Below, one piece after another: positions 1,275-46,918 of a DNA stretch of 64,000 nucleotides (positions are counted from its first letter, which is position 1; each line of letters starts with the position of its first letter). This DNA is from an uncultured Lachnospiraceae bacterium (GTDB lineage Bacteria > Bacillota > Clostridia > Oscillospirales > CAG-272), in contig CAZRVL010000001.1 of the NCBI GenBank assembly GCA_964603455.1, forward strand, positions 17,031 through 81,030, read 5' to 3'. The notes beneath the pieces were generated by a model. That model saw only the letters and a program-made list of their open reading frames with translations, did no database searches and was not told the DNA's origin. The translations under genes and the position numbers were made by a program.

Positions 1275-2106
1275 CGGCATCCTCCTTATCTCCGGGCTTT
1301 ACGCACAAAAGCACGGTCAATAAAATGATCAAAAGCGGTATCGCAACGATCGGTGCAACGATCAGCGGATCTATCTGCACGGCATCGGCGGTAACACGCG
1401 CTATCTTTGCTTCTTCGATATTTTCTATTCTATGTCCGCGGACAAGTAGACGGTGAGTATTTATTCCGTAAGGTGTACAGGTGACTATCGTACAATAATC
1501 CTGCCCTTCAACGATCTGCAAAGCATCGGTATCCTGAGGTTCAACTATCAATATCTGATCGACTTCATATGTCAATACCTCGTCAAGCACGCGGAGCATG
1601 AATAGAGAACCGTTCTGAAGCTTATCCAAATTAGTGAACAGCTTCGCGCTCGGAAGTCCTCGGTGTCCCGATAAAACGCAGTGTGTGCTTTTACCGCCGG
1701 TCGGAAGACTCGACCATTCGAGATGGCCGACGGCGATCTGAAGGACAGCTTCATCCGTACCGTGGTATATTGGTAGAGAACAATTTATCTCGGGTATCTC
1801 GATATATCCCATAATTCCAAGTCCCGAAAGATTCAACAGACTGTCGTAAAGCGATTTCTGCTCATCATCGAGCAAGTATGAATTTTCACGCCCGACAAGC
1901 GAAGCATTGTAATCCTTTGCAGCATTCCAAAGTTCATCATATTTGTCAGTATCAAGGTTAGCGACTTCCTCTGCATAGCCGGCTATCGCCTTTGACTGAT
2001 GCAAGGAGTTCCAATAATCGCTTACCGATGGGTACAACAGCAAGGAGAGACCTGCAAAAAGTATTAGAACCAGAAACAGGTTTGTATGGCTTTTATGTTT
2101 TTTCAT
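1261..2106 (-). CDS. srtC: Class C (pilus-polymerising) sortase
   Basis: Active-site motif YCTIVTCTPYGINTHRLLVRGHR, conserved His in VLSGHRGLP, and N- and C-terminal TM segments. SD AAGGAGA sits 8 nt before ATG 2106, so the track start 2142 is an upstream extension. Confidence 0.85.
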   Translation of the reverse strand: MKKHKSHTNLFLVLILFAGLSLLLYPSVSDYWNSLHQSKAIAGYAEEVANLDTDKYDELWNAAKDYNASLVGRENSYLLDDEQKSLYDSLLNLSGLGIMGYIEIPEINCSLPIYHGTDEAVLQIAVGHLEWSSLPTGGKSTHCVLSGHRGLPSAKLFTNLDKLQNGSLFMLRVLDEVLTYEVDQILIVEPQDTDALQIVEGQDYCTIVTCTPYGINTHRLLVRGHRIENIEEAKIARVTADAVQIDPLIVAPIVAIPLLIILLTVLLCVKPGDKEDADENE

Positions 2107-2121
2107 TGCAGGTATCTCCTT

Positions 2122-2140
2122 GCCGCTGCAAAGCAGCGGC
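2122..2140 (-). other. Intercistronic GC-rich hairpin between the major pilin and sortase genes
   Basis: Minus strand reads GCCGCTGC-TTT-GCAGCGGC (8-bp perfect stem), followed directly by the sortase SD. There is no U-run. Confidence 0.6.
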
Positions 2141-2162
2141 ATAATTTAACGAATTTGCATTA

Positions 2163-3629: not shown

Positions 3630-3680
3630 AACAAAAATTCCTTTCTTAATATAAAAATTTTAAAATAAACATTTTTGAGA

Positions 3681-3713
3681 GCAGGAAGAAGAATCAATCG
3701 TCATTCTTCCTGC
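3681..3713 (-). other. Hairpin straddling the tip-adhesin stop codon
   Basis: GCAGGAAGAA (3681-3690) pairs with TTCTTCCTGC (3704-3713), a 10-bp stem with a 13-nt loop containing the stop at 3694-3696. No clean U-run follows. Confidence 0.5.
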
Positions 3714-6700: not shown

Positions 6701-7491
6701 TCGGAATGAATATGCTCTACATCATCCTTTGTGGTATCTTTCGGATCTTCAACAGTCGAATCGTTCCAATCATGCTTTCCAAACGATGACCACAGATCAT
6801 CGAAATTACCAAACGACCATGAATGACCGAATGATGTTTCGGTAGATGAAGTCTCAGCAGTAGTTTCCTCGATCACCGAATCAACACCACCGGATGATTC
6901 TACAGACGTGTCAATCGACATATCGAAAGATGTATCGCTCGAAATATCAGTCTCAACGGTCGTTTCATCCGATTCTGCTGTGCTCTCATCAAATGTAGTT
7001 TCGGGGACTTCGGTATCAGATACCACTTCATCCGTCGTTATCTCATCAGAGCCCGTCGTCTCATATGAAGCATCAGACTCATCCTTCGACTCTGTGGTTT
7101 CCTCAAAAGCCGTGTCATCTGTGCTTTCAGCAGACGTAATTTCATCAGATGTATCTACGTCTTTAATAGCTACATCTAAAGTTTCTTCGTTTTGATCATC
7201 AGATGTAACATCACTCGGCGGATCGGAATCGGCTTCATCTGATGTATTCGATGAAATATCCGAAGTCTCCGACTCAATCTCATAGGATGAATCGAATGGG
7301 AAGAACCATTCGTTTTCGGGAAATACATATCCGCTCTTTTCACGTTCAAGCGTTATCGCAGGCAGTATAAGAGCATATGTCGTGCAGAATACCACCGCGG
7401 CTGCAAGGAACACTACCAGCTTATACCACCGCGATCTTCGCTTATGCGCCTTTGCATATTTGTCGGCGTCCTTCAAAACGCCCTTTTTCAT
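3694..7491 (-). CDS. Pilus tip adhesin with a von Willebrand factor A domain, LPXTG-anchored
   Basis: A full SD AAAGGAGGTGATC precedes ATG 7491 (MKKGVLKD). Long n-region signal peptide; acidic S/T/D/E-rich region of about 170 aa; vWFA/MIDAS-like VVIVMDISNTMTDD; C-terminal Cna-B-like domains (KLTETKIPDGYVSNGKEYTV); LPQTGGSG plus TM plus KRRKNDD. Confidence 0.75.
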   Translation of the reverse strand: MKKGVLKDADKYAKAHKRRSRWYKLVVFLAAAVVFCTTYALILPAITLEREKSGYVFPENEWFFPFDSSYEIESETSDISSNTSDEADSDPPSDVTSDDQNEETLDVAIKDVDTSDEITSAESTDDTAFEETTESKDESDASYETTGSDEITTDEVVSDTEVPETTFDESTAESDETTVETDISSDTSFDMSIDTSVESSGGVDSVIEETTAETSSTETSFGHSWSFGNFDDLWSSFGKHDWNDSTVEDPKDTTKDDVEHIHSEKCYKDGELICGLEEKKDVQDLPKEAKKLLEILPSDKEITENIEGYYADGDNEGLEAYIAELRDMIDYVRGECEKLNAEREEPISIENELAEIEKLISDLTDGRIPLLKDDSAYVSGLTFGDTYVEGREDDTEYLVASGGTIVFNFELSADSYTGDIFEHGRIKYEFVLPFNSEKVEFADISWFDEADIIEDEGSQVLVGYKDMKIPESAEGSISLKVNNAEVGDNISLTLGAASVYGAWDDICAEHEVTEKLTAVSAEYTVIALYTPEQQQKFYELFESRIDEIKEPEIEAVELEDEIELAYHEGKLTKAQYNELLKLLDVKSCDPNRIAEPSHGDNWKALVESGWFEEYSDYAYYTEEDYDFAYFVDDEGSEESDDKPVSPSDVQIEDHGGSNENPDDGVSVSKTIEGTDLENVFDITLKVSTTSKIEEVVKEPDMAVVIVMDISNTMTDDFGGITRYQAAMDAAEDFLDKFAESNILGVSKIGYVAFNTDAHEIFGLESCTSYAEANALKNTMRTATGKIINAGGYGESHSRFTNIEAGLKMASDMLDGVSNKNKFIIFLSDGFPTTYIESGYNGYDPYDSTGRFYDYNIGAPCLYGTSYSDEAAIRARKMATSIKNSGTTIFSIGVDVGGQTIAGYDTHTAKDGFSVIDRTGTTYEIGGAADESAYKNWLGNSIGSGYYYDSTNTAGLIGAYNQIFETIKQEVTNASEADWVAEDPMPPIANLIKDIEFIGFYDKSPKLIEGDLYGEHSYGAENTASFAGEKITWDLKRSGYVESKNGDKTIYTYQLVYRVRLKNENDGFVERDIYDTNGETTLQYKVIKEINGTSEVSESKEIDFPIPSVFGYIGELEFDKVDTRGSPLQGAEFTLSHDTAACSGCHGDGGCVELLDMVAVSGADGSVYFDGIPSGHIYKLTETKIPDGYVSNGKEYTVIIAYDEITVLVNGDEAAWNGSIENRVYYELPQTGGSGSEVYVISGAVLICSSVLLIAYTNSKRRKNDD

Positions 7492-7524
7492 AGACTCGAT
7501 CACCTCCTTTTTACAAAAGATTTA

Positions 7525-8109
7525 TCAATTCACTTCTCCAAACGAATCAATAGGCCATACTCTGAAAACTATTTTTCCGACTACCTGCTCCTCCGAAACA
7601 CATCCTACCGATGTATTTCTCGAATCCACAGAAGTAGAACGTTTGTCACCCATGCAGAAATAGCGGTTATCCGGAACTTGATACGGCAATTCGATATTGC
7701 AGTCTCCAAGTGCTTTATCGGTCAAATACGGTTCATCGAGCAGTACTTCGTCCACATATACATTGCCCTCCTCGTCTATATCGACCCATTGCCCCGGACG
7801 TGCTATGCAGCGTTTTACCAAAACCTTGTTTCCAATATAAAAAGCCACAAGGTCTCCGGCTTCGAATTTAGATCCCTTAAGGCATACAACAATATCACCT
7901 TCACTCAATGTCGGAACCATCGAAGTACCGTATATCTGCAATACCGGCATAAATATCGTCGCGACCAACACAGCGACCGCGGCGGCTACTATTAATGTAC
8001 ATACCGTACTTCTGAACGCTTTACGATAGCGTCGATTATATCTGACTCGCTTGAGCTCACTCGAAAGCTGTTCAAGCGTTGGAGCACTAATATCAGTCTT
8101 CTTCGCCAT
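7525..8109 (-). CDS. Type I signal peptidase (S26 family) encoded inside the pilus operon
   Basis: Catalytic boxes GTSMVPTL, VKRCIARPG and GDKRSTSVDSR, plus an N-terminal TM. SD GAGGG lies 5 nt before ATG 8109, which sits inside the last 17 nt of the upstream gene. Confidence 0.8.
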   Translation of the reverse strand: MAKKTDISAPTLEQLSSELKRVRYNRRYRKAFRSTVCTLIVAAAVAVLVATIFMPVLQIYGTSMVPTLSEGDIVVCLKGSKFEAGDLVAFYIGNKVLVKRCIARPGQWVDIDEEGNVYVDEVLLDEPYLTDKALGDCNIELPYQVPDNRYFCMGDKRSTSVDSRNTSVGCVSEEQVVGKIVFRVWPIDSFGEVN

Positions 8110-8569
8110 TCGAACCCTCAACAGGTGTTGAAATAGCCGATTGGAGCGTTGAACGCAAAGCGTCTTGATTGTTTAGTATGACAGTAGCACGCTCGACCAC
8201 GGCACGCCAGTATGCCTCAGCCTTAGCACGTATCTTATCGCCCTCATCAGCGGCATTTTTCAAAATATCAGCCGCTTCTTTCTCGGCATTTTCACGTATA
8301 GAGCGACATTCATTTTCGGTATTATCATTTAGCCGCTCGATATTTTCAAGATACTGCTTAGCCGCCTTCTCAGCCGCTTCAAATACACCGTTGAGCAGGA
8401 GCGAAGCCTCGGCAATCGAACCGGCATTTTCAATATTGATCTGTCGGTCGGTCAACTTCGCGCTTGACGCTTCGATCTGCTTTTTTAATCTTTCGTTTTC
8501 TTCGGTCTGTGAGATCAACAGCTCAAGCAGCTCGGTTCGGCTGAGCTTTTGCAGTTCCTTATCTGTCAC
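8093..8569 (-). CDS. Coiled-coil protein of unknown function, first gene of the pilus operon
   Basis: GTG start with SD GGGAGA 6 nt upstream. Heptad-rich E/K/A sequence and no TM. Its end overlaps the signal peptidase start. Confidence 0.5.
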   Translation of the reverse strand: MTDKELQKLSRTELLELLISQTEENERLKKQIEASSAKLTDRQINIENAGSIAEASLLLNGVFEAAEKAAKQYLENIERLNDNTENECRSIRENAEKEAADILKNAADEGDKIRAKAEAYWRAVVERATVILNNQDALRSTLQSAISTPVEGSNGEED

Positions 8570-23167: not shown

Positions 23168-24805
23168 TTATTTCTGCTTTTCTTCGTATATCAAGACCAC
23201 TGGAGGGCAGCAGTAATCTACATCTGCCAGATGCAGTCCTCTCTCATACGCTTCTCTGATAACAAGCATAACAATACACTCTGTAGCCGGAAGATAGCGA
23301 TACATATCGCTTACACCCTTCAAATGTTTCGGCAGCGACAGCATATTACCCTTAAGATACTCTGCATATTCTCCGCCAAGCTCAGACTTCAGTTCATCGA
23401 AGCATTTTTCGATCAATGAGCTTATCTTTTTGAAATTCTCTCGCTCAACGATCGGAATATCTACCTTCAGTTCACCATCTTCTCTGATTATAAGTCCCGT
23501 ACACTTTATGAGATCGGGGAGCTTTTCTATCATTGCGGACGATATTCCGCTGTTTTCGACTGGAAGTTTTTTGTATATACACCAGAGCAACTTTCGTATT
23601 TCATTAAAATACAGCTCATATCCGCAGACAGCGAATCTGTGTGGGTTATCCCACAGAGTCGTGTCAAATTCTACCATCTGCAAAAATTTCGCATCAAAAT
23701 GATCGCATTCACCGCCATCTGTGCGATGTCCTCCGATAACACTGTATTCCTTCACTCTATCAAGCTCCTCGCTTTGATAACCGGACGGAGTATAATATCC
23801 GCTCGCAGTCCAGCTTCCTCCGTCACGCCGATTCGGATGTCTGTATGTGCTGTTGTCTGACAGCCTGAGCTGAAAACGTTGCAATGCACAGAGCAGAAAA
23901 TAACGTTCGAGCTTCGTCCTGCTGTGAACGTTCATCTCACGAACGAAATCAAGCCGGTCGAGTTCGTTTAATCTATTCGACAAAATATTCCATATTCTGT
24001 CAAAACGTTCCTTTATAAATTTTTGCTGTGCCGGGAAATGCTGTATCAAGTCTTCCGGACGATATATTATAAAATCGGTATAATATCTTTTTCCGTCAGT
24101 CTCGACCATAAGCTCGGCATTCGTAAGTTTTCTGATAATAGGTTCAATATATACGGTCGGTATTCCGAGCGCATTTGCAAGCTCTACCGCCGTGAGCGGT
24201 CTTTCGTATGCGGATATTAGCAGATTCTGCGCTATGAGATCGTCTTCAACGCAGGACATCGGCTCACCGTGAAGTCCTTCGCTTCCGCTTATCGAAAGAT
24301 TCAGCGTTCCGGGTATATTGTTTCTTGCTTCGTTCATTTGTGTAAATCCCTCCTTGATCTTTTCGCGACCTGCCGAAAGTCTGCTCTTGACCGTTCCTGA
24401 CGGCAGACCCATATGATAAGCTATATCCGATATAGTTTGACCGTTATAGTAATAACGTATCATAACCTCACGTGTTGTTTTGGACAGATAATTTATTTCA
24501 CGTCTCACACGCTCGGCTTCCTCGATCAGTTCATCATCACCTTCATCTGCTGCAATATTATCAGCCTCGAAAATATCGACTGTCGGCGGCTGTGAATACC
24601 TCTTTCTCAGCATACTGTTAAATTTGTGCATAAACGTATTCGCAAGCCAGGTCTTCGGATATTCTATCACTCCGCCTCTTCTCAAATATGCCAAGGCATC
24701 GAGAAAGGTTTCGGACACCAGATCCTCGGCATCCTCATATGATGAGCATTTCGATTCGGCAAATCTTCGTATGTAATCATAATATTCAAGCAGTTGGTCA
24801 TCCAT
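23168..24805 (-). CDS. ECF-type sigma-70 family factor fused to a C-terminal extension of about 370 aa
   Basis: SD AAAGGAGA lies 7 nt before ATG 24805. Region 2 (YEDAEDLVSETFLDALAYL) and region 4 (GQTISDIAYHMGLPSGTVKSRLSAGREKIKEG) are present. A winged-helix-like segment (LTAVELANALGIPTVYIEPIIRKLTNAELMVE) follows, then a large unassigned domain with no TM. Confidence 0.7.
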   Translation of the reverse strand: MDDQLLEYYDYIRRFAESKCSSYEDAEDLVSETFLDALAYLRRGGVIEYPKTWLANTFMHKFNSMLRKRYSQPPTVDIFEADNIAADEGDDELIEEAERVRREINYLSKTTREVMIRYYYNGQTISDIAYHMGLPSGTVKSRLSAGREKIKEGFTQMNEARNNIPGTLNLSISGSEGLHGEPMSCVEDDLIAQNLLISAYERPLTAVELANALGIPTVYIEPIIRKLTNAELMVETDGKRYYTDFIIYRPEDLIQHFPAQQKFIKERFDRIWNILSNRLNELDRLDFVREMNVHSRTKLERYFLLCALQRFQLRLSDNSTYRHPNRRDGGSWTASGYYTPSGYQSEELDRVKEYSVIGGHRTDGGECDHFDAKFLQMVEFDTTLWDNPHRFAVCGYELYFNEIRKLLWCIYKKLPVENSGISSAMIEKLPDLIKCTGLIIREDGELKVDIPIVERENFKKISSLIEKCFDELKSELGGEYAEYLKGNMLSLPKHLKGVSDMYRYLPATECIVMLVIREAYERGLHLADVDYCCPPVVLIYEEKQK

Positions 24806-24910
24806 ACTGTTTTCTCCTTTCATGAGTATAGTCGCAAAAATATTTAAATGGTTCGGTCAAAGATCGATTTTTTATTTTCTGCTCAGATTTATATAGTTTT
24901 AATAAATCAC

Positions 24911-25920: not shown

Positions 25921-26592
25921 TTGCAATTCAGACACGAAGTCAAGCATATGATAAATCCATATGATATGCTGATACTTAGGCAACGACTTCGAGCGGTCAT
26001 GAAAACGGACAGTCATGTGATAGGAGGAAAATACGAGATACGAAGCTTGTATTTCGACAATATATATGACAAAGCACTCCGTGAAAAACTTGATGGAGTG
26101 AATATCCGTGAAAAATACCGCATACGCCTTTACAACAACGACCCATCTGTCATACATCTCGAACGCAAATTCAAGCATGGAGATCTCGGATATAAGGATT
26201 CGGCTCTTTTGACTCCATGTGAAGCCGAGCGCATAGTAAACGGTGAGATCGAATGGATGTCCGAAAGCCAAAACGATGTAATTCTTGGATTCTACACAAG
26301 AATAAAAAACGAAGGACTTCGTGCAAAGGTGATAGTCGATTATACACGTGAGCCATTCATATATGAAGCCGGAAATGTGCGTGTGACATTGGATCACGAT
26401 ATTCGAACCGGGCTTTCCTGCAAGTCACTTCTCGATCCGAAGTGCGCAACGATACCAATAAAGGATTCGCCTGCTATACTTGAAGTCAAGTGGGATAATT
26501 TTCTGCCTGACGTAATACGTGATGCAGTACAGCTTGATTGCAGATCGGCTTCGGCATTTTCAAAATATGCCGCCTGTCGAATGTACGATTAA
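25921..26592 (+). CDS. VTC-domain (Vtc4-like polyphosphate polymerase / triphosphate-tunnel) protein
   Basis: TTG start 9 nt after SD AGAAAGGA. N-terminus MQFRHEVKH and YEIRSLYFDN are typical of bacterial VTC-domain proteins. 223 aa, soluble. Confidence 0.7.
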   Translation: MQFRHEVKHMINPYDMLILRQRLRAVMKTDSHVIGGKYEIRSLYFDNIYDKALREKLDGVNIREKYRIRLYNNDPSVIHLERKFKHGDLGYKDSALLTPCEAERIVNGEIEWMSESQNDVILGFYTRIKNEGLRAKVIVDYTREPFIYEAGNVRVTLDHDIRTGLSCKSLLDPKCATIPIKDSPAILEVKWDNFLPDVIRDAVQLDCRSASAFSKYAACRMYD

Positions 26593-26666
26593 GTCAAGCT
26601 TTCCGACACAGATCAAATTTTAACCAAGAAAGGATGCCTTTCTAAAACAAAGGCAATGGGAATAAA

Positions 26667-27338
26667 ATGTCATTCAACGATATATTCAAATCAAGTTTCC
26701 TTGAAAACGTCACGGCAGTCAGTCTGCTCGATATGTTCCTGACCATATTGCTGTCATTCGGCATAGGTCTATTCATATTCCTCATATACAAAAAAACTTA
26801 TCGCGGCGTTATGTATTCCGCAAGCTTCGGCACTACTCTCGTTGCTCTGACAATGATAACCTCTGTCGTTATCCTCGCCGTTACATCTAATGTAGTATTA
26901 TCACTCGGTATGGTCGGTGCATTGTCGATAGTTCGTTTTCGTACCGCTATCAAAGAACCGCTCGATATAGCATTTTTATTCTGGTCTATCGGTGCGGGTA
27001 TCGTGCTTGCCGCAGGAATGATACCGCTTGCCGTAATAAGCAGCGTTATAATAGGCATCGTACTCCTCGTCTTTGTAAACAAAAAATCATATTCGCATCC
27101 ATACATGGTCGTGCTGAACTGCTGCGATCATGAGAGCGAAACACGTGCGGCTGAGTTTCTAAATAAAAATGTGATAAAGAGTGTTGTCAAGAGCAAATCA
27201 GCTGTAAAGGGTGCGGTTGAATTAAATATCGAAGTAAGATTAAAGGATGACAACACAGATTTCGTAAGTACGCTTTCCGAAATGCAGGGTGTGAACAGCG
27301 CAGTTATTGTTTCCTACAACGGCGAATATATGGGATAG
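26667..27338 (+). CDS. DUF4956-type membrane protein
   Basis: Four N-terminal TM helices including the conserved VGALSIVRFRTAIKEPLDIAFLFWSIGAGI, plus a soluble tail of about 85 aa. It is the middle gene of the VTC/CotH triad. Confidence 0.6.
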   Translation: MSFNDIFKSSFLENVTAVSLLDMFLTILLSFGIGLFIFLIYKKTYRGVMYSASFGTTLVALTMITSVVILAVTSNVVLSLGMVGALSIVRFRTAIKEPLDIAFLFWSIGAGIVLAAGMIPLAVISSVIIGIVLLVFVNKKSYSHPYMVVLNCCDHESETRAAEFLNKNVIKSVVKSKSAVKGAVELNIEVRLKDDNTDFVSTLSEMQGVNSAVIVSYNGEYMG

Positions 27339-27341
27339 ATC

Positions 27342-29282
27342 ATGTCACAAAGCAAACATTTTGAAAAGTTCGCGTGGAGCGTGACAGCTCTGATGCTAGT
27401 CATCACGATATTATTTATGAACGGAAGCTCGCTCGGAATACAGGTATCGGCACGTACTATGGGCTATGAGACGAGATTATTCGACAATTCAAGAATGCAC
27501 ACCATAGATATTGTTATGGATGACTGGGACGATCTAATTGCAAATGCCGCCGATGAAGAATATTATAACGCAAGCATAGTTATAGACGGAGAGGCATATA
27601 AAAATGTCGGAATACGCGCAAAAGGCAATACTTCCCTCTCAAACGTTGCCTCAATGGGAAGCGAACGCTACAGCTTAAAGATCGAATTTGACCACTATGA
27701 CAGCACAAAGACCTATTACGGACTCGATAAGCTCTGTCTCAACAATCTAATTCAGGATTCGACTATGATGAAGGACTATCTGACATATACTCTGATGAAC
27801 GAATTTGGAGTAAATGCACCACTGTGCAGCTTTACATACATCACAGTAAACGGCAATGACTGGGGAATGTATCTCGCGGTAGAAGGAATCGAGGATGCCT
27901 TTCTGACGAGAAATTACGGTTCTGACCACGGCGAGCTATATAAACCCGACAGCATGAGCTTCGGCGGCGGCAGAGGGAACGGCAAAGATTTCGACATGAA
28001 TGAGATAATGGAAAATTTTGATTTTTCGGACGTATCTATGCCACAGTTTCCAAACAGCATGGCTGACGGTGATATGCAAATGTATCGTGAAAGCGGCGAT
28101 ATGAAAAACGATATGGGAAATATCGAGCCGCCGAATATGAATAGCGGTATACCGCAGATGTCAGATACAGATCTTCCGAATCTCGAAGATACGAAAGAAA
28201 ATGATCTCGGAGATTTGTCATTTGGCGGAAAAGACCTCGGTAAAGCCGATCACAGAGAAATGGGCGGATTCGGCGGTGGAATGGGTTCATCAGATGTAAA
28301 GCTGCAATATATAGATGATGAGCTTGATAGCTATTCAAATATATGGGACAATGCAAAGACAAATATTTCCGAAGCCGATAAAAAGCGGTTGATTGAGTCC
28401 TTAAAATCATTATACGAATATGACAACATAGAAGATGTCGTTGACATTGATGGCGTTCTAAAATATTTCGTAGTACACAATTATGTCGTGAACGGTGACA
28501 GCTACACCGGCTCGATGGTACACAACTACTATCTCTATGAAAAAGATGGTCAGCTTTCGATGATACCATGGGATTACAACCTCGCATTCGGTACATTTGC
28601 CGGCGGTAATGCGTCTTCAACCGTCAACGAGCCGATAGATTCTCCCACATCAGATCCCGATGACCGACCGATGTGGGGATGGATATTGTCTGATGAAAAA
28701 TACACCGAAATGTATCACGAATACTTTTCGGAATTACTTAAGATAGATATTTCACAGATAATCGACAGCGCATATGAGCTTATAAAGGATTATGTCGAAA
28801 AAGACCCGACAAAATTCTATGACTATGATGAATTTGAAAAGGGCGTATCGACTTTGCGCGAATTTTGTAAGCTTCGCAGCGAAAGCATAGAAATACAGCT
28901 CGAAAACAACGAAACTTACGAAGCTATGAATTATTCAGATGCTTCGCATATAACGCTTTCGGATATGGGTTCGATGGATATGGGCAAAAACACCAATATG
29001 AATGAAATGCCGAATATTGGTCAGATGCTGCCCGAAGGCTTCAGAGCAGATGGCTCTAACGGTGAGATACCGAACGATACGGCGCGAAATGACCGAAGTG
29101 ACAAAAATTTCGATAATTTTGAAAAAGATCAAAAGCAAGAACGCTTTGAAGGCATGAATACACCCGATATGCAGCTTCCGAACGGTTCTCGGACAGTATC
29201 TAATGTAAATTCATGGATACTTGTCGGAATATCCTTTGCTGTGCTTTGTATCGGAATAATCATTGCAAAAATCCACAAATAG
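27342..29282 (+). CDS. CotH-family atypical kinase-like protein, membrane-anchored at both ends
   Basis: It starts 4 nt after the DUF4956 stop. N-terminal TM (FAWSVTALMLVITILFM) and C-terminal TM (WILVGISFAVLCIGIIIA). CotH-like core (YSLKIEFDHY, MMKDYLTYTLMNEFGV, GELYKPD, HNYYLYEKDG...WDYNLAFG). Confidence 0.7.
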   Translation: MSQSKHFEKFAWSVTALMLVITILFMNGSSLGIQVSARTMGYETRLFDNSRMHTIDIVMDDWDDLIANAADEEYYNASIVIDGEAYKNVGIRAKGNTSLSNVASMGSERYSLKIEFDHYDSTKTYYGLDKLCLNNLIQDSTMMKDYLTYTLMNEFGVNAPLCSFTYITVNGNDWGMYLAVEGIEDAFLTRNYGSDHGELYKPDSMSFGGGRGNGKDFDMNEIMENFDFSDVSMPQFPNSMADGDMQMYRESGDMKNDMGNIEPPNMNSGIPQMSDTDLPNLEDTKENDLGDLSFGGKDLGKADHREMGGFGGGMGSSDVKLQYIDDELDSYSNIWDNAKTNISEADKKRLIESLKSLYEYDNIEDVVDIDGVLKYFVVHNYVVNGDSYTGSMVHNYYLYEKDGQLSMIPWDYNLAFGTFAGGNASSTVNEPIDSPTSDPDDRPMWGWILSDEKYTEMYHEYFSELLKIDISQIIDSAYELIKDYVEKDPTKFYDYDEFEKGVSTLREFCKLRSESIEIQLENNETYEAMNYSDASHITLSDMGSMDMGKNTNMNEMPNIGQMLPEGFRADGSNGEIPNDTARNDRSDKNFDNFEKDQKQERFEGMNTPDMQLPNGSRTVSNVNSWILVGISFAVLCIGIIIAKIHK

Positions 29283-39134: not shown

Positions 39135-39163
39135 TTGCAAAACGGCTCAAAATGTGGTATTAT
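39135..39163 (+). promoter_or_regulatory. Sigma-A type promoter of the nad/aro operon
   Basis: TTGCAA (39135-39140), 17 nt, extended -10 TGGTATTAT ending at 39163. Confidence 0.6.
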
Positions 39164-39198
39164 ATTATAGTACAAATATATTCTTCGGGAGCAATCAC

Positions 39199-40119
39199 AT
39201 GATAAACAATACAAATAAGGAAATCGCTGAGGAAATACTGCGCTTAAAAAAGGAAAAGGACGCACTTATCCTCGCTCATTATTACCAGAGACTTGAGATC
39301 CAGCAGGTAGCCGACATCTTCGGTGACTCCTTCGAGCTTTCAAAAAAAGCTAAGCTTGCACAAAATCAACTGATCATATTCTGTGGTGTAAGCTTTATGG
39401 CTGAAAGTGCAAAGATACTCAATCCGACAAAGAAGGTAGTCCTTCCGAGAGCCGACGCAGGCTGTCGTATGGCAAACATGGTCACGCCCGAAGATATTCT
39501 GGCTCTGCGCGAAAAATATCCCAAAGCGGCTGTCGTATGCTATGTAAATTCATCTGCTGCGACAAAAGCGGTATCTGACATTTGCTGCACTTCATCGAAT
39601 GCGATAAAGGTCGTCGGAAGTCTGCCGAACAAGCAGATAATCTTCGTCCCCGACAAAAATCTCGGTGCATACGTTGCAAAGGCTTTTCCAGAAAAGGAAT
39701 TCATACTTCATTCAGGCTTCTGTCCGACTCACAAGAACATAACCGCTGAAGAGGTCGAAAAAGCCAAGGCTCTTCATCCGAATGCGCTGCTTGCTGTACA
39801 TCCCGAATGTGAGAAGGAAGTTCTCGATGCCTCAGACTTCATCGGAAGCACATCGCAGATAATCGACTACTGTGTCAAGACCGACAGCGAAGAATTCATA
39901 ATCGGAACTGAGGTCGGAGTCGTTGACCGGTTGAGCTTCTATCACCCCGAAAAAAAATATCATCTGTTGACACCTTATCTCGTTTGCTCGGATATGAAAA
40001 AGACTGAGCTTTCGGATGTTCTGAATGCACTCAAAACAGAGGAGCATGAGGTCATCATGACAAATGACGAGATCGAAGCCGCAAGTCTTCCGCTCGAACG
40101 GATGGTCGCGATAAAATAA
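39199..40119 (+). CDS. nadA: Quinolinate synthase
   Basis: Start MINNTNKE. Motifs ILAHYYQ, FCGVSFMAESAKIL and three conserved Cys regions (AGCRMA, CYVNSSA, GFCPTH). Confidence 0.9.
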   Translation: MINNTNKEIAEEILRLKKEKDALILAHYYQRLEIQQVADIFGDSFELSKKAKLAQNQLIIFCGVSFMAESAKILNPTKKVVLPRADAGCRMANMVTPEDILALREKYPKAAVVCYVNSSAATKAVSDICCTSSNAIKVVGSLPNKQIIFVPDKNLGAYVAKAFPEKEFILHSGFCPTHKNITAEEVEKAKALHPNALLAVHPECEKEVLDASDFIGSTSQIIDYCVKTDSEEFIIGTEVGVVDRLSFYHPEKKYHLLTPYLVCSDMKKTELSDVLNALKTEEHEVIMTNDEIEAASLPLERMVAIK

Positions 40120-40133
40120 AGGAGATATAAATT

Positions 40134-40976
40134 ATGCAAATCTATGGACAGGCACTTGATAAGATCATTTTAAACGCACTTGAGGAGGATGTCGGAACGG
40201 GAGACATAACAACTCTCTCGACCATCCCCGAAAATCGGATCGCGCATGGCTTATACAAGGCCAAGGAATGCGGCGTGCTCTGCGGAATCGATGTTGCCAA
40301 GCGTGTATTCGAACTGATCGATCCCACTATTGAATTTACCGCAATAAAAAAAGACGGAGACCTTGTAAACATAAATGACATAGTTGCCGAGGTCAAGGGA
40401 AAGGCAGCTAATGTGCTCACCGGTGAGCGCGTTGGACTCAATCTCATGCAGCGTATGTCGGGCATTGCCACAAGAACAGCCGAAGCTGTTAAGCAGGTCG
40501 AGGGAACTCAGGCTAAGATCTGCGATACGCGAAAGACTACTCCCGGACTCAGAATACTTGAAAAATATGCTGTCAGAGTCGGCGGCGGAACAAATCATCG
40601 CTTCAATCTCGCAGATGGTGTGCTCATAAAGGATAATCACATAGTTGCAGCCGGTTCTATAACCGAAGCAGTCAAATCGGCAAGACAGAATATTCCTCAC
40701 ACACTTAAGATCGAAGTCGAGGTCGAGACCTTCGCAGGACTTGAAGAAGCTCTCAATGCCGGAGCAGATATAATCATGCTCGACAATATGAGCTGTGCAG
40801 CAATGAAGCAGGCTGTAAAGATGGTCGGTGGAAGGGCTTTGACCGAAGCCTCGGGAAATATGGGCGACAGAGATCTCAGAGAGGTCGCCGAATGCGGTGT
40901 CGATCTCATAAGCATAGGTGCGCTGACTCATTCGGTGCGCGCTCTCGACATCAGCTTGAAATTTACTATTGAATGA
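40134..40976 (+). CDS. nadC: Nicotinate-nucleotide pyrophosphorylase (carboxylating)
   Basis: Motifs EDVGTGDITT, ICDTRKTTPGLR, GGGTNHRFNL and IMLDNM. Confidence 0.9.
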   Translation: MQIYGQALDKIILNALEEDVGTGDITTLSTIPENRIAHGLYKAKECGVLCGIDVAKRVFELIDPTIEFTAIKKDGDLVNINDIVAEVKGKAANVLTGERVGLNLMQRMSGIATRTAEAVKQVEGTQAKICDTRKTTPGLRILEKYAVRVGGGTNHRFNLADGVLIKDNHIVAAGSITEAVKSARQNIPHTLKIEVEVETFAGLEEALNAGADIIMLDNMSCAAMKQAVKMVGGRALTEASGNMGDRDLREVAECGVDLISIGALTHSVRALDISLKFTIE

Positions 40977-42016
40977 TCATGGAAAAAATAATCGTAAAAC
41001 ATACGATGGGCGAATATCCGATATATGTCGGTGAGGATATTCTTGAGGACGCACTTTGTGAGTTTTTCAAAACAAGATCGTATGACAGGATATTTATCGT
41101 AACCGACAGCAATGTTAGCCGTTTGTACGACAACAAACTTCATGAAACACTCGAAAAGCTCGACATCACCTTCTGCGGATATTATTCCTTCCTCGCAGGG
41201 GAGAAATCAAAAAATCTCGGCACAGTGTCCGAAATGTACGATATGTTCGCAAAAACACATCTCACCAGAAAATCGCTCGTCATCGCGCTCGGTGGAGGAG
41301 TGGTCGGAGATATGGCAGGCTTTGCGGCGGCGACCTTCCTTCGCGGCATAGATGTGCTTCAAATACCGACTACCCTGCTCTCCCAGATAGATTCATCAAT
41401 CGGCGGCAAGACAGGTGTGGATCTCGAATACGGAAAAAATCTGGTAGGTGCATTCCATCAGCCAGTAGCGGTAATATCCGACAGCCTTTTTCTTGAAACA
41501 TTGCCGAAACATTTTGTAAATGACGGAGTGGGTGAAGCAATAAAGACCGGACTCATCGGTGATGCTGAGCTTTTCTGCGGAATAGAGACGCAGACCATAT
41601 CGCGTGCCGAGCTGATAACACGATGTGCAAGATTCAAGGCTGACATAGTTACTAAGGATGAATTTGAATCGGGTCTTCGCAAAATACTGAACTTCGGTCA
41701 CACTATAGGTCATGCTGTTGAAAAGCTCGGAAACTTCGAACGCTTTTCTCACGGAGAATCGGTCGGCATAGGAATGCTCTACGCAGCAAAGATCGGCGAA
41801 AAGCTCGGATATATGAAGTGCTTCGAACGTATCAAATCTACACTCAAGCTATGTGGTCTTCCGACCGATATGGACTACTTGCCTGACGAGCTTATAAATA
41901 TAGCGGCAAGTGATAAAAAGCGCAGCGGCGATTCGATCTCATTCATTCTTCTCGATGAGATCGGCACTCCGAAGATAGTTGATATAAACATAGATGAACT
42001 GAGAGGTATGCTGTGA
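40973..42016 (+). CDS. aroB: 3-dehydroquinate synthase
   Basis: Motifs GGGVVGDMAGFAAATFLRGI, QIPTTLLSQIDSSIGGKTG and NFGHTIGHAVE. The start forms an ATGA overlap with the nadC stop. Confidence 0.85.
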   Translation: MIMEKIIVKHTMGEYPIYVGEDILEDALCEFFKTRSYDRIFIVTDSNVSRLYDNKLHETLEKLDITFCGYYSFLAGEKSKNLGTVSEMYDMFAKTHLTRKSLVIALGGGVVGDMAGFAAATFLRGIDVLQIPTTLLSQIDSSIGGKTGVDLEYGKNLVGAFHQPVAVISDSLFLETLPKHFVNDGVGEAIKTGLIGDAELFCGIETQTISRAELITRCARFKADIVTKDEFESGLRKILNFGHTIGHAVEKLGNFERFSHGESVGIGMLYAAKIGEKLGYMKCFERIKSTLKLCGLPTDMDYLPDELINIAASDKKRSGDSISFILLDEIGTPKIVDINIDELRGML

Positions 42017-43275
42017 CGATATTCAAACCATTAAAAATGTGCGGAGATGTCAGAGTTCCGGCTTCGAAAAGTCAAGCACACCGTGCGCTCATATGCGCAG
42101 CTTTGGCAGGCAACAGCAAGATCACCGGACTTACGCCTTCTCAGGATATGACTGCCACTCTCGGTGCTTTAAAGGCACTCGGAGCTGATATTGAAGCTGA
42201 TTTCGAAAAGGGTACTGCGGTATCCGGGAAACCACTGGTCAGATGTGAAAATGATATTGATTCTTCTGATTACTCGGTCATAGACTGCGGAGAATCGGCT
42301 TCAACTCTGCGCTTTATGATACCGATAGCCGCAGCTCTCGGACGAAATGTAGAATTTATCGGTCACGGAAGACTTCCCGAGCGCACGACAATGCTGTACA
42401 AGCCGTTGCTTGAAGCTCACGGTGTCAGGATGGATTATCCGAATGGTGGAAAATTTCTGCCTCTCAGACAATCCGGGAAACTTACCGATGGCATATATGA
42501 GATACGCGGAGATATATCCTCGCAGTTTGTCACAGGTCTTATATATGCGCTGTCGATAGTCGGAGAAGGAAGCGTAAGGCTCACTACAAAACTTGAAAGC
42601 CGTCCGTATGCCGACATGACTGTCGATGTTATGAGACGCTTCGGCATAAATATAGCCGACAATGATGATTCGTATATAATCTCTGGAAAATACAGCCCAA
42701 CGTCAATGGATGTTGAGGGTGATTGCTCGCAGGCGGCATTTTTCGCTGTGCCTGCCGCGATACATGGCAGTATAAGACTTTTCGGTATAGATCAAAGCAC
42801 CAAACAGGGAGATTTCAAGCTCTTTGAGATACTCAAGGGCTTCGGCGCAAAGGTCGAATATTCGGAAAATATCATAACAGTAAGCGAAGGTAAGCTAAAG
42901 GCATATGACATTGATGCTTCGGACATACCCGATCTTGTGCCGGCACTCGCAGTGCTTGCCGCATACTCTGAAGGACAGACACGCATATACAATGCCGGAC
43001 GGCTCAGACTCAAAGAGAGCGATCGCATAGCGACCACCGTTGATATGATAAATTCGCTCGGCGGAGAGGCATTTGCGACTGATGACGGCATTGTGATAAC
43101 CGGAAAAGAAAAGCTTTCAGGCGGAAAGGTCAAGTCATACGGCGATCACAGAATAGCTATGGCAGCGGCGGCGGCTTCTGTCGGCTGCAAAGCTGATGTC
43201 GAGGTAGATGATATGAGCTGCACCGCAAAATCCTTCCCGAACTTCACGGATCTATTCGAAGCCGACCGAGCATAA
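42013..43275 (+). CDS. aroA: 3-phosphoshikimate 1-carboxyvinyltransferase (EPSP synthase)
   Basis: GTG start overlaps the aroB stop (GTGA). Motifs VPASKSQAHRALI, RLKESDRI and YGDHRIAMA. Confidence 0.9.
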   Translation: MTIFKPLKMCGDVRVPASKSQAHRALICAALAGNSKITGLTPSQDMTATLGALKALGADIEADFEKGTAVSGKPLVRCENDIDSSDYSVIDCGESASTLRFMIPIAAALGRNVEFIGHGRLPERTTMLYKPLLEAHGVRMDYPNGGKFLPLRQSGKLTDGIYEIRGDISSQFVTGLIYALSIVGEGSVRLTTKLESRPYADMTVDVMRRFGINIADNDDSYIISGKYSPTSMDVEGDCSQAAFFAVPAAIHGSIRLFGIDQSTKQGDFKLFEILKGFGAKVEYSENIITVSEGKLKAYDIDASDIPDLVPALAVLAAYSEGQTRIYNAGRLRLKESDRIATTVDMINSLGGEAFATDDGIVITGKEKLSGGKVKSYGDHRIAMAAAAASVGCKADVEVDDMSCTAKSFPNFTDLFEADRA

Positions 43276-43314
43276 AGGCTTTATCTGCTATTATTTATAA
43301 AAGGACTGATATAA

Positions 43315-44856
43315 TTGAAACAATATCTATATTCGAAATCTATCGAAGAGCTTCCTGTAAGTCATTGTGATGTACTGGTTGTCGGCGCGGGCATAGCCGG
43401 ACTTTATGCGGCGCTTGAGCTTCCCTCCGAGCTGAATGTAACTATAGCGACCAAGGTCGGATTTGATATGTCAAACTCATATCTCGCTCAGGGAGGCATA
43501 GCTTCGGTTATCGATTCTTCAGACAGATTCGATTCGCATATCGAGGATACCCTAAAGGCAGGTGCCGGTGAATGCGATCTCAAAGCCGTCACGACCCTTG
43601 TAAAGGAAGGACCTGAGAACATACGCCACCTTGTTGATATGCTCGTTCCATTCGACAAAAAGGACGATGGCTCGCTCATGATAACCCGTGAAGGCGGTCA
43701 TTCCTGCCGCAGAATAGTCCATTGCGGAGGTGATGCGACCGGTCGAGAGGTCACAAAGCGTCTCACCGAGATAGCTCTCACACGGGATAACATAACTATA
43801 CTCCAAAACACAAATCTCATAGATATATTGACAGAGAACGGTGCAGTTGTCGGTGCGCTGCTTTCTGGAGAAAAGGATCACATAGTGTCCTGTTCAAAGA
43901 TCATTCTCGCCACAGGCGGAATAGGTGCGCTGTATGAGCATACTACCAATCCCTCCGGTGCAGTCGGTGACGGTATAGCAGCAGCAGCCAGAGCCGGTGC
44001 AAAGGTCGTGAACATGGAATTTGTACAGTTCCATCCGACTACGATGATACCTCAGTCAGGTCAGACCGAACGCAGATTCCTTATCTCCGAAGCTGTCCGC
44101 GGTGAAGGCGGTATATTGAAGAACCATTTGGGCGAAGCCTTTATGCAGGGCAAGCATCCACTCGCAGATCTCGCTCCGCGTGATATTGTGACACGTGAGA
44201 TACTCCATGAAATGCGCAGAACAGGCGAAGCTCATGTATTCCTTGATGTTTCTGCTATGAGTGAGGAGTTTTTCGCAAAACGTTTCCCAACAATATACGG
44301 CGAGTGCAAGAAATACGGTATCAACATTCCACGCGATATGATCCCTGTTGAGCCGGCTCAGCATTATCTTATGGGCGGTATCGAAACAGATATTGATGCA
44401 AGGACCTGTGTAAAGGGTCTCTATGCCTGTGGAGAATGCGCATGGACAGGTGTTCACGGTGCAAACAGGCTGGCAAGCAATTCTATGCTCGAATGCCTTG
44501 TATTCGGGCGCAGAGCCGCAAGATCGGCAGCCAACGACAAATTTGCCGAAAAACAGGATAGATTCTCGATCAAAACAGTCGAAGGGAAACCTATTTCGGA
44601 TGAATATATCGAAACCAAGCGAAGTGAACTCCGCGCTGTGATGACCGAAAACCTAAACGCCGTAAGAACACTTTCGGGAATGGCAAAGGCAAAAGATTAT
44701 GTTGATAAACTTCTTGCAGAGCTTGATATGAGCTCAATTTCCACAAAGCGCGGATATGAGCTTTACTCACTTTCCACAGCCGCAAAATTCATAACCGATG
44801 GTGCATTGGCACGTGAAAAATCGGTCGGTGCGCATTATGTCGAATACTGTGAATAA
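43315..44856 (+). CDS. nadB: L-aspartate oxidase
   Basis: TTG start. FAD motif VLVVGAGIAGLYAAL, plus RFLISEAVRGEGG and GLYACGECAWTGVHGANRLASNS. Confidence 0.9.
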   Translation: MKQYLYSKSIEELPVSHCDVLVVGAGIAGLYAALELPSELNVTIATKVGFDMSNSYLAQGGIASVIDSSDRFDSHIEDTLKAGAGECDLKAVTTLVKEGPENIRHLVDMLVPFDKKDDGSLMITREGGHSCRRIVHCGGDATGREVTKRLTEIALTRDNITILQNTNLIDILTENGAVVGALLSGEKDHIVSCSKIILATGGIGALYEHTTNPSGAVGDGIAAAARAGAKVVNMEFVQFHPTTMIPQSGQTERRFLISEAVRGEGGILKNHLGEAFMQGKHPLADLAPRDIVTREILHEMRRTGEAHVFLDVSAMSEEFFAKRFPTIYGECKKYGINIPRDMIPVEPAQHYLMGGIETDIDARTCVKGLYACGECAWTGVHGANRLASNSMLECLVFGRRAARSAANDKFAEKQDRFSIKTVEGKPISDEYIETKRSELRAVMTENLNAVRTLSGMAKAKDYVDKLLAELDMSSISTKRGYELYSLSTAAKFITDGALAREKSVGAHYVEYCE

Positions 44857-44949
44857 ACCGGAGTTTTCCACATTTCCAACAGGCTTTTCCCCAAATTCCG
44901 AGGTTGTGGCAAACAGAGTGTGGAAATATTCTGTGGAAAATGTGGAAAA
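44737..44949. promoter_or_regulatory. Cluster of seven DnaA-box-like 9-mers (three forward, four reverse)
   Basis: Forward: ATTTCCACA 44737, CTTTCCACA 44770, TTTTCCACA 44864. Reverse: TTTGCCACA 44905-44913, ATTTCCACA 44919-44927, TTTTCCACA 44932-44940 and 44941-44949. They were compared with the DnaA-box consensus TTATCCACA / TT(A/T)TNCACA. Confidence 0.5.
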
Positions 44950-46030
44950 TGCAATACGTTTTCAGCTCAAGAAGCTCGGCTGTTCGGATATGTTCAAGGA
45001 TAAGAGGGTCGCAATAAAGCCGAACCTCGTCATGAAAAAATCTCCCGAAGCTGCTGCTACTACTCATCCGATAGTTCTCGAAGCTATGCTAAGGATACTC
45101 AAAGAATCGGCTGCCGACATAGTTATCGCCGAAAGTCCTCCCGGTGTATACACGGAATCTGCGCTTAAAGGCTTTTACAATGCCTGCGGTATCACCGAAG
45201 TTGCCGAAAGATATTCGGTAAGGCTAAATTTTGACACATCGAGCCGAGAGGTCAGCATACCATATGCCAAAAGTGCGCATATGTTCGAGCTGATAACTCC
45301 GATGCTCGATGCCGATGTCATAGTCAATCTTGCAAAGCTCAAAAGTCATGCGCTGACTAAATTCAGCGGCACTGTCAAGAATTATTTCGGAACTGTTCCG
45401 GGAATAACGAAGGTCGAAACACATGCAAGATTTCCCGATTACGGTGATTTTGCCTCTATGCTCGTTGATCTATGCTCATATTTTGCATTTTCGAAGCCGA
45501 CATTCAATATACTTGACGGAATATTGGCTATGGAAGGAAACGGTCCTACCGGCGGCGATGCCCGCGAGCTCGGATGGCTTCTTTCCGGACTCAACCCATA
45601 CAACGTCGATATAGTCGGAGCAAAACTGATCGGATTCGACGATATTATGATGCTGAACGAAGCAATAAAACGCGGATATGCGGTGAGTGAGCCGCTTGTG
45701 TACGGAGATCCTTTGGAAATTGTGGAAAACTTTAAGCTGCCTGACACATCCGGCTCGACTTCAGCTCTCGAATGGCTTTCAAAAGCCTTCGGAGGCAGGC
45801 TGTACAAATGGCTCCAACCGCGTCCTGAGGTTTCCACAAATATGTGCATAAGTTGTGGGGAATGTGTAAGAAGCTGTCCCCAAAAGACGATCAGGATAGT
45901 TGAAGGAAAGAAACGACACGCACTTATCGATGATTCGGGCTGCATAAAATGTTACTGCTGCCAGGAAATGTGTCCGGTCAAGGCAGTTCGGATAAAGAAA
46001 AATCCGATAATGAAGTTACTTGGGGGTTAA
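44837..46030 (+). CDS. DUF362-domain protein with a C-terminal 2x[4Fe-4S] ferredoxin domain (start uncertain)
   Basis: DUF362-like N-terminal region (KRVAIKPNLVMKKSPEAAATTHPIVLEAMLRILKE). Two ferredoxin-type Cys clusters: CISCGECVRSCP and CIKCYCCQEMCP. ATG 44837 has no good SD and overlaps nadB by 20 nt; in-frame GTG candidates lie at 44906 and 44918. Confidence 0.7.
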   Translation: MSNTVNKPEFSTFPTGFSPNSEVVANRVWKYSVENVENAIRFQLKKLGCSDMFKDKRVAIKPNLVMKKSPEAAATTHPIVLEAMLRILKESAADIVIAESPPGVYTESALKGFYNACGITEVAERYSVRLNFDTSSREVSIPYAKSAHMFELITPMLDADVIVNLAKLKSHALTKFSGTVKNYFGTVPGITKVETHARFPDYGDFASMLVDLCSYFAFSKPTFNILDGILAMEGNGPTGGDARELGWLLSGLNPYNVDIVGAKLIGFDDIMMLNEAIKRGYAVSEPLVYGDPLEIVENFKLPDTSGSTSALEWLSKAFGGRLYKWLQPRPEVSTNMCISCGECVRSCPQKTIRIVEGKKRHALIDDSGCIKCYCCQEMCPVKAVRIKKNPIMKLLGG

Positions 46031-46033
46031 GAT

Positions 46034-46918
46034 TTGAACATAACATTATTAGCACACGCAAAGATAAATCTCTGGCTCGACATAAAATCCAAACGAGTTG
46101 ACGGCTATCACAACATCGAAAGCATCATGCAGACCGTGAGCTTATGTGATGAACTGACGATAGAGCGGCTCGATCGAGGCAAAGGTATAACTATGCGCTG
46201 TGATGACAACAGCCTTGACTGCGGAAGGACAAATCTATGCACACGCGCTGCCGAAACCTTTTTAAGCTCGGTCGGAATAAACGAATACAGCATATCTATA
46301 GACCTAAAAAAACGCATTCCGATCTCTGCCGGACTTGGAGGCGGAAGCACAGACGCAGCCGCTGTGATACGTGCGCTGAATAAACTGTTCGAGCTTCGGC
46401 TGTCAGTCGATGAGCTTTGCAGGATAGGCGTAAAAGTCGGTGCAGATGTTCCATTCTGTATACGCGGCAAAACTGCTGTTGTACGCGGTATAGGAGATAT
46501 TCTCGAAGAATGTGAAAAAATGCCGAAATGTCCGATACTGATCGCCTGCGACGGTGAATCGGTATCGACTCCCGAAGCATACGGAATGATGGATGAACTC
46601 TACGGCGATTTCACATCGAGAACGAAAAGCGCATATGAGCTTGCAGATACCTTCAAATCCGGTGACATCTCGAAGATCGCAAACGGATTTTACAATATAT
46701 TTGAATCTGCGATACTCAAAAAGCGTCCGCGAGCGCAGTATCTTAAGGATTTCATGCTGTCATCGGGTGCGTTGAACGCGCTGATGAGCGGAAGTGGGCC
46801 TTCGGTGTTCGGTGTATACGATGAGCTTGCAAAAGCCGAAGCGGCTGCCGATGAGCTTAAGCACAATGGCATTAAGGCTGTAGTATGCGAGCCATATTAC
46901 GATAACGCCCGTCTGTAA
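46034..46918 (+). CDS. ispE: 4-diphosphocytidyl-2-C-methyl-D-erythritol kinase
   Basis: TTG start. Motifs AKINLWLDIKSKRVDGYHNIES and the GHMP kinase motif PISAGLGGGSTDAAA. Confidence 0.85.
   Translation: MNITLLAHAKINLWLDIKSKRVDGYHNIESIMQTVSLCDELTIERLDRGKGITMRCDDNSLDCGRTNLCTRAAETFLSSVGINEYSISIDLKKRIPISAGLGGGSTDAAAVIRALNKLFELRLSVDELCRIGVKVGADVPFCIRGKTAVVRGIGDILEECEKMPKCPILIACDGESVSTPEAYGMMDELYGDFTSRTKSAYELADTFKSGDISKIANGFYNIFESAILKKRPRAQYLKDFMLSSGALNALMSGSGPSVFGVYDELAKAEAAADELKHNGIKAVVCEPYYDNARL

Follow-up and report, generated by a model that had tools for sequence, protein, structure and literature searches.

The junction between nadB and the gene that follows it in an uncultured Lachnospiraceae bacterium carries a dense array of a single short word, the octamer TTTCCACA/TGTGGAAA, which resembles the DnaA box. 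The stretch of DNA analysed here, referred to as the window, covers 64 kb of contig CAZRVL010000001.1 (assembly GCA_964603455.1). Within it, nadB (43315-44856, + strand) encodes an L-aspartate oxidase (Pfam FAD_binding_2, 3e-91, and Succ_DH_flav_C) in a gene order that is conserved in related species, and runs directly into a gene for a 397-residue DUF362 and 4Fe-4S dicluster protein (44837-46030, + strand, with an alternative GTG start at 44849; Pfam DUF362, 4e-51, and Fer4 families). The window contains 11 copies of the octamer, where dinucleotide-preserving shuffles predict 1.86 and in no case gave as many (0 of 100). Eight of the 11 copies lie within 1.1 kb (44738-45838) and six within 211 bp (44738-44948), a concentration beyond randomness that the original prediction had already described and whose 9-mers were all recovered at their reported positions and strands.

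Could such a cluster be a look-elsewhere effect, the one dense word that any long stretch will yield? Strand-collapsed counts of all 8-mers show TTTCCACA/TGTGGAAA to be the sole word in the window that exceeds three copies per 220 bp. Loci of other Clostridia species, 682 kb in total, contain it at 0.066 per kb, and two copies never fall within 220 bp of each other there; the rest of the window shows the same background, about 0.07 per kb. No 8-mer in those related loci reaches six non-overlapping copies in 300 bp. A word that is alone in its density here and never so dense in related DNA is not the product of a wide search, and the array is real and far above chance.

Individual sites were scored with a matrix of nucleotide counts from 150 experimentally bound Bacillus subtilis DnaA boxes (IDAP-seq; PMC4447404, Table S3) at the published cut-off of p<=0.0015. 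The core of the array consists of about 11 boxes in 250 bp (44700-44949), in which the + copies of the word all lie 5' of the - copies, and three outliers follow at 45.7-45.85 kb. The last 160 nt of nadB hold four boxes, with the stop codon inside one of them. These are TTATCAACA (44700-44708, - strand), a TTAT-type DnaA-box match with a high score of 8.58 over the codons for YVDK; ATTTCCACA (44737-44745, +), read as ATT TCC ACA (IST); CTTTCCACA (44770-44778, +), read as CTT TCC ACA (LST); and TTATTCACA (44848-44856, -), again TTAT-type and with the top score of the region (8.78), which lies across the nadB stop (TGT GAA TAA) and codons 4-7 of the DUF362 gene.

On the DUF362 side, a TTTTCCACA box at 44864-44872 (+; codons 10-12, FST) forms the first half of the left arm of an inverted repeat, and the second half is TTTCCAACA (44873-44881, +; FPT), a weak box at the matrix threshold that is polymorphic between strains. 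It is followed by a further weak box, TTTTCCCCA (44885-44893, +; FSP), and by TTTGCCACA (44905-44913, -; VVAN), which is one mismatch from TTWTNCACA and falls below the matrix threshold. A second ATTTCCACA box (44919-44927, -) reads GTG TGG AAA and encodes VWK where homologues have V-[T/G/E/D]-[D/E/G/S]. Two abutting TTTTCCACA boxes (44932-44949, -), over codons for S-VEN-VEN, make up the right arm of the inverted repeat and involve no change of length with respect to homologues. The outliers are a TTTTCCACA box at 45721-45729 (-; IVEN), an GTTTCCACA box at 45830-45838 (+; VST, homologues V-[D/E]-x), and the TTAT-type TTATGCACA at 45843-45851 (-; high score of 7.84), which overlies the first ferredoxin Cys motif (MCIS).

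Some of the similarity extends beyond the boxes themselves. The two arms of the inverted repeat (44864-44881 and 44932-44949) are complementary at 16 of 18 positions without gaps, the first 12 perfectly. The outlying box at 45721-45729 belongs, together with 45712-45720, to a 22-nt near-copy of the right-arm region (19/22; 44928-44949 against 45708-45729), and shorter near-copies of 15 and 13 nt match at 87% and 92%. GATATGAGCT occurs twice in 44725-44778, 28 nt apart and in two different nadB reading frames, each time with a TTTCCACA box a few bases after it, and the repeated unit in nadB may thus be longer than the box.

Where the DUF362 gene begins decides whether any of these sites is intergenic. 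A homology search with the long open reading frame (ORF) returned thousands of DUF362-ferredoxin homologues of 385-400 residues, whose N-termini align with the window residues FSTFPTGFSPNSEVVANRVWKYSVENVENAIRFQL, encoded from about 44864 on, and the identical 397-residue product is called on contigs of several samples. This alignment places the start at ATG 44837 (possibly GTG 44849), with a 20-nt overlap with nadB (stop at 44854-44856). With a start at 44837 every copy is coding and nothing is intergenic. The proposal that part of the cluster lies between the genes or over an ambiguous DUF362 start is therefore not sustained: 44857-44949 encodes DUF362 residues 8-38, which align with homologue N-termini. 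The only part that is longer than in homologues is the poorly conserved N-terminal FSTFPTGFSP. An in-frame tandem duplication was considered as the source of the abutting boxes and rejected, as VENVEN aligns column by column, with no insertion, with the homologue pattern V-[D/E]-x-[I/L/V]-E-x.

The nadB stop and the DUF362 start overlap in all three species examined, by 20 nt in the window and by 4 nt and 1 nt at the related loci L082 and L086, which represent the closest other species. No good Shine-Dalgarno sequence is visible by eye at the nadB-DUF362 overlap, which together with the overlap itself suggests translational coupling of the two genes. The nadB C-terminus reads HYVEYCE* in the window species and HYIEPDET* or HYIEPDAE* in relatives, and it is this change that creates the TTATTCACA box. 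In a more distant relative of 60% identity (L001, 3700-4060), an aroA-like frame, identified by eye, runs straight on to the DUF362 start without an intervening nadB, which points to an insertion of nadB between aroA and DUF362 that is specific to the clade of the window, and to a DUF362 protein that is not generally tied to NAD synthesis.

The copies are not accounted for by the proteins that they encode. Those on the + strand read xTT TCC ACA (IST, LST, FST, VST) and those on the - strand read GTG GAA AAy (VEN, three times) or GTG TGG AAA (VWK). When the synonymous codons of nadB and DUF362 are resampled from the codon usage of the window itself, 0.18 copies are expected against the eight seen, and more than three copies appear in none of 3000 trials. 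The original prediction had named codon usage, in the form of repeated VEN or FST strings, as a possible undoing of its claim, and these numbers remove that threat. The codons used in the boxes are minority choices (TCC 13% of Ser, GTG 15% of Val, ATT 14% of Ile). In nadB and DUF362, TCCACA encodes 4 of the 5 S-T dipeptides and GTGGAA 3 of the 8 V-E dipeptides; in the other genes of the window the corresponding figures are 3 of 82 (3.7%) and 3 of 89 (3.4%). Some copies even lie under residues that are unusual for the family, namely VWK and VST at the positions described above. Rare codons and unusual residues together indicate that the cause acts on the nucleic acid and not on the protein: the array is imposed at the DNA level, by way of rare codons and some non-conservative residues.

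Do the sites fit DnaA boxes as a family? The matrix finds 2.66 boxes per kb in the window, and 11,353 boxes are reported in the roughly 4.2 Mb of B. subtilis (about 2.7 per kb), so that its calibration carries over. Ten matrix boxes fall in the 300 bp from 44651 to 44950, against at most about five in windows away from the cluster, a maximum of six per 300 bp at 87 loci of other species, and a resampling null for the same stretch with a mean of about 2.5 and a maximum of six in 2000 trials. For comparison, counts per 300 bp in B. subtilis are 4-12 at its two origin regions and six strong non-origin regions, and 2-5 at its weak intragenic sites (PMC4447404). When TTWTNCACA is allowed up to one mismatch, as in the mapping of clostridial origins, the core has 11 boxes in 250 bp; by the same rule, clostridial oriC1 regions have 9-19 and oriC2 regions 5-9. 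The array also holds more than the three boxes at a mean spacing below 100 bp that have been taken to mark a cluster (PMC7561715). In density it equals known strong DnaA-binding regions and fits a cluster of the DBC (DnaA-box cluster) or datA type.

A further line of evidence comes from boxes that are not copies of the octamer. Seven of the window's 12 boxes scoring at least 7.8 lie in 44650-45900, and three of these seven are TTAT-type rather than TTTCCACA: the two top boxes of the region, TTATTCACA at 44848 and TTATCAACA at 44700, and TTATGCACA at 45843. Three or more such boxes arise in 23 of 4000 null trials (p~0.006). This separate enrichment lends separate, moderate support to DnaA-box identity, and with it the sites fit the DnaA profile as a family; the support is moderate because few boxes beyond the TTTCCACA copies are in excess. 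Together, these observations show that the sites match DnaA-box criteria at the density of known DnaA-binding regions, and the DnaA-box assignment made at the outset holds as far as density (10 per 300 bp) and TTAT enrichment go.

The array is fixed in one species. Ten contigs from at least nine samples, at 98.2-100% nucleotide identity over 3.6 kb, keep every copy, which rules out an assembly artefact. Both strain single-nucleotide polymorphisms (SNPs) found in the repeat fall in the weak copy at 44873-44881. The nearest species beyond it, which are 76% and 70% identical at the protein level and share the gene order, have no copy of the octamer in 9 kb. No DUF362 homologue between 76% and 99% identity is found in the protein database, and a scan of genome contigs found only relatives of at most 60% identity. 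The array is therefore species-specific, constant across the strains of one species and absent in the nearest others.

The locus is not an origin of replication. GC content in 60-nt segments of 44.3-46.1 kb has its minimum at 0.35, compared with minima of 0.12-0.18 in the intergenic DNA of the window, and neither dnaA, dnaN nor any other replication gene is found among the roughly 46 Pfam-annotated ORFs of the window. The view that the cluster is not oriC, lacking an AT-rich unwinding region and dnaA/dnaN nearby, is confirmed by this GC scan and by Pfam, and a chromosomal origin is rejected. A promoter or terminator was likewise considered and set aside: there is no sigma-70-like site, and terminator-like sites are at chance level only, both of them on the opposite strand. 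No known RNA family is found in the window at Rfam gathering thresholds.

Around the junction, the two genes are part of a mixed, operon-like run on the + strand (39154-46918) in which two shikimate genes stand between the NAD genes: nadA (39154-40119), nadC (40134-40976), aroB (40973-42016), aroA (42013-43275), nadB, the DUF362/Fer4 gene and a GHMP kinase gene (ispE-like, 46034-46918), after which comes an FKBP-type isomerase gene. Upstream of this run, Rfam gave neither an NAD-related riboswitch nor any other family.

On the pattern and density of the sites, we tentatively favour a non-origin DnaA-box cluster, laid over coding sequence and bound by DnaA, that would serve as a sink or reservoir and possibly also as a roadblock. 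Through domain IV, the conserved initiator DnaA would bind the array cooperatively, and the array would act as a reservoir or sink that modulates free DnaA, much like the B. subtilis clusters or datA. Bound DnaA might also impose a roadblock within the nadB-DUF362-ispE transcript. A more specific version, which we regard as possible but hold with less assurance, is that the array would be a recent DnaA-binding reservoir, analogous to datA and the DBCs, that arose by recoding the junction of two housekeeping genes at the cost of rare codons and altered residues.

Several observations weigh against binding by DnaA. The eight boxes share a T at position 3 and a C at the free position 5, and just 12% of the bound boxes of B. 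subtilis have that T (PMC4447404). The perfect box TTATCCACA is not present in the cluster, though it is within easy reach, by a change of Leu CTT to TTA or of Glu GAA to Asp GAT (homologues often have Asp there). Uniformity of this kind could reflect another protein or a copying process. Without the TTTCCACA copies, 44300-45900 holds 9 boxes where the null gives about 5-6 on average, a modest excess. Origin-proximal marker genes are not found among the roughly 46 ORFs of the window, which extends 44 kb upstream and 18 kb downstream of the array. The strong known clusters are intergenic, and near oriC in Bacillus, while the array here is coding. Among strains, 68 of 3603 nt are variable and none of the 64 motif positions is, against 1.2 expected, which is too few to show constraint. 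Finally, orthologous junctions show no conservation (no matrix box at L082, one at L086/L087).

This last result bears on the original prediction, which had proposed to look for the 9-mers at synonymous positions of orthologous nadB-DUF362 junctions and had counted their absence as evidence against itself; they are absent, and formally the claim fails on this point. Candidate DnaA-box clusters adjoin different genes in each Bacillus species, however (PMC3245932), and with such turnover of location the absence in orthologues is weak evidence: it removes a support and carries little weight against binding.

The objection from uniformity is weakened by a different source. A scan of metagenomes for three TTTCCACA copies with gaps of at most 30 nt matched at least 120 loci, and in 6 of 120, from about four lineages of 26-56% GC, the array lies directly beside dnaA. 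Pfam identifies both DnaA and DnaN at three array loci (L128, L154 and L189) and DnaA at a fourth (L131). The array at L154 numbers 11 (T/A)TTTCCACA boxes, each either in the dnaA-dnaN interval or in the final 45 nt of dnaA. Uniform arrays with T at position 3 at dnaA-dnaN loci indicate that this is genuine origin architecture in some bacteria. Most of the other metagenomic arrays are regular tandem repeats away from long ORFs and not beside dnaA, so the word TTTCCACA is probably used by other proteins too.

The metagenomic loci are diverse in their own right. One (L164, 1-2311) holds 58 copies, many about 27 nt apart, another (L213, 7882-7990) holds 12 at a 9-nt period, and a third (L125) holds 19; these are iteron- or satellite-like TTTCCACA repeats that share the DnaA-box word. 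A further locus (L184, 5800-7600) combines low GC (0.29) and DnaA signature motifs with a single ORF of at least 200 residues under translation table 11, which fits an alternative code (UGA = Trp), and about 11 TTTCCACA-type boxes flank its presumed dnaA.

If DnaA is not the cause, what else could have written one word eight times into two genes? The alternative that survives best, although we consider it unlikely, is a functionless by-product of mutation: templated events such as template switching or quasi-palindrome correction, with drift, would have spread an 8-9-mer over 1.1 kb in one lineage, and the likeness to DnaA boxes would be incidental. This would account for copies that are unusually uniform (same 8-mer, T at 3, C at 5) rather than a spread of variants, for the longer near-copies (19/22 over 22 nt, and those of 15 and 13 nt), for a central inverted repeat that at 16/18 is a typical quasi-palindrome correction product, and for an array that is absent in the nearest other species and under no detectable constraint within its own. 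However, template switching acts over tens of bases, and here eight copies in both orientations and three codon phases extend over 1.1 kb with no change of length relative to homologues. The separate TTAT-type excess is left unexplained, and so is the fixation of costly rare codons and of the non-conservative VWK and VST in ten strain contigs.

A lineage-specific binder of TTTCCACA/TGTGGAAA other than DnaA, either Spo0A-like (TGTCGAA, one mismatch) or AbrB-like (pairs of TGGNA), appears rather improbable. Its appeal lies in the eight invariant positions, which include positions 3 and 5 that DnaA leaves fairly free, and in the metagenomic arrays, most of which are not beside dnaA and many of which are iteron-like. 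Two of the three double units moreover read TGGAA-N4-TGGAA, which fits the bipartite AbrB motif. Yet none of the motifs of Spo0A, AbrB, parS, Noc, Rex, CodY and TnrA, compared by eye, fits the whole 8-9-mer, and we know of no regulator with TTTCCACA as its consensus. Among widely conserved proteins, only DnaA has a measured matrix that gives the sites high scores, and the additional TTAT-type boxes fit DnaA specifically. Spo0A and AbrB are kept only as a minor rival. WalR, NrdR and sigma-54 motifs were compared in the same way, and none of them fits.

Function at the RNA level is still harder to credit, and we think it quite doubtful that complementary UUUCCACA and UGUGGAAA copies form nested helices that tune coupling or mRNA stability. 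A stem of about 17 bp had been put forward in the original prediction, and the repeat exists (16/18), but its arms lie at codons 10-15 and 32-38 rather than over the start codon, and they cover no Shine-Dalgarno sequence either. The order of the core, with all + copies before all - copies, does allow helices to nest, and 44725-44960 folds better than expected (z=-3.1; 1 of 200 shuffles as good), as does 44850-44965 (z=-2.1). The opposite strand folds nearly as well, however (z=-2.7), the distal pair at 45721 and 45830 does not fold beyond chance (z=+0.1), and pairing needs complementarity, not one word eight times. At orthologous junctions the arms are absent and folding is at the level of shuffles (z=+0.80 at L082, z=-0.62 at L086). 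The two left-arm strain SNPs are uncompensated, there is no covariation, and no Rfam match lies in the window, so that the stem is not supported as an alternative to DnaA boxes. The hairpin potential is taken as a by-product of two facing box arrays.

Ordinary coding coincidence, in which repeated xST and VEN tripeptides meet a local codon preference, is barely conceivable and is excluded as an artefact: although all copies are coding, with every + copy read as xTT TCC ACA and three - copies as GTG GAA AAy, and although the family pattern at VENVEN is V-[D/E]-x-[I/L/V]-E-[N/S/A], synonymous resampling leaves 0.18 copies expected for eight seen (more than three in 0 of 3000) and the codon pairs are rare elsewhere in the window (3.7% and 3.4%).

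The remaining ORFs of the window encode pilus and sortase proteins, sugar utilisation, NAD and shikimate enzymes and regulators. A sortase-dependent pilus locus on the - strand (204-8121) comprises a Cna_B protein, a class C-type sortase, an LPXTG backbone pilin (GramPos_pilinBB/SpaA), a 1269-residue VWA/SpaA tip-pilin-like protein and a signal peptidase. Genes for a VTC-domain protein, a DUF4956 protein and a CotH-kinase-family protein adjoin at 25921-29282. In a 551-residue protein (23168-24823), Pfam recognises sigma-70 region 4 alone, at about residues 104-158, and the protein may be a fusion of sigma/anti-sigma-like type.

What would binding by DnaA mean? Among known non-origin DnaA-box clusters, the array would then be the first to lie wholly in coding sequence, and a case in which initiator control visibly shapes protein-coding DNA. 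It would imply that such loci can arise quickly, and in coding DNA, and that codon choice, and even protein sequence, can yield to selection for binding of the initiator. The locus offers a compact, testable fragment of 300 bp, for which the orthologous junctions, with 0-1 boxes, are a natural negative control. Should DnaA not bind, an unusually clear and unexplained DNA-level constraint inside genes would be left.

Non-origin clusters have been characterised experimentally mainly in Escherichia coli and B. subtilis, and the known strong ones are all intergenic. The DBCs of B. subtilis resemble the array in being dense sets of DnaA boxes in both orientations without an unwinding element (7-11 per 300 bp there, 10 here), and their location likewise varies among species (PMC3245932). 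All six of them are intergenic or promoter-proximal, however, often regulating the flanking promoters, and most are near oriC, whereas here every box is inside the coding part of nadB or DUF362. The DBCs have been shown to be occupied by DnaA and to have a replication phenotype, while the array is known from its sequence and, unlike them, has no perfect consensus box. The defining structural features of DnaA-box clusters are themselves admitted to be unclear (PMC3245932).

The datA locus of E. coli too is a non-origin locus of about 1 kb with several DnaA boxes, proposed to lower active DnaA; with five boxes and an IHF site, datA promotes the hydrolysis of DnaA-ATP. The boxes here are many more, weaker and coding, and an IHF-type site is not expected in a Firmicute. 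In position, the array is like the intragenic secondary regions of B. subtilis (codV, rplB, yhcA, ggaA and others), whose boxes are coding and mostly imperfect, as here (PMC4447404, Table 1). Those regions hold 2-5 boxes per 300 bp against 10 here, have micromolar apparent dissociation constants and are mostly unoccupied in vivo. The codon statistics of the array, by contrast, speak for boxes put there rather than due to chance. In sequence, the array is like the oriC arrays of TTTTCCACA/ATTTCCACA at the metagenomic loci L154, L128, L131 and L184, which have the same 9-mers, the same close spacing and both orientations. These are non-coding, between dnaA and dnaN or upstream of dnaA, and the array here has neither gene and no AT-rich element beside it. 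With its boxes inside genes rather than between them, it is best seen as a variant, not a member, of the DBC/datA kind.

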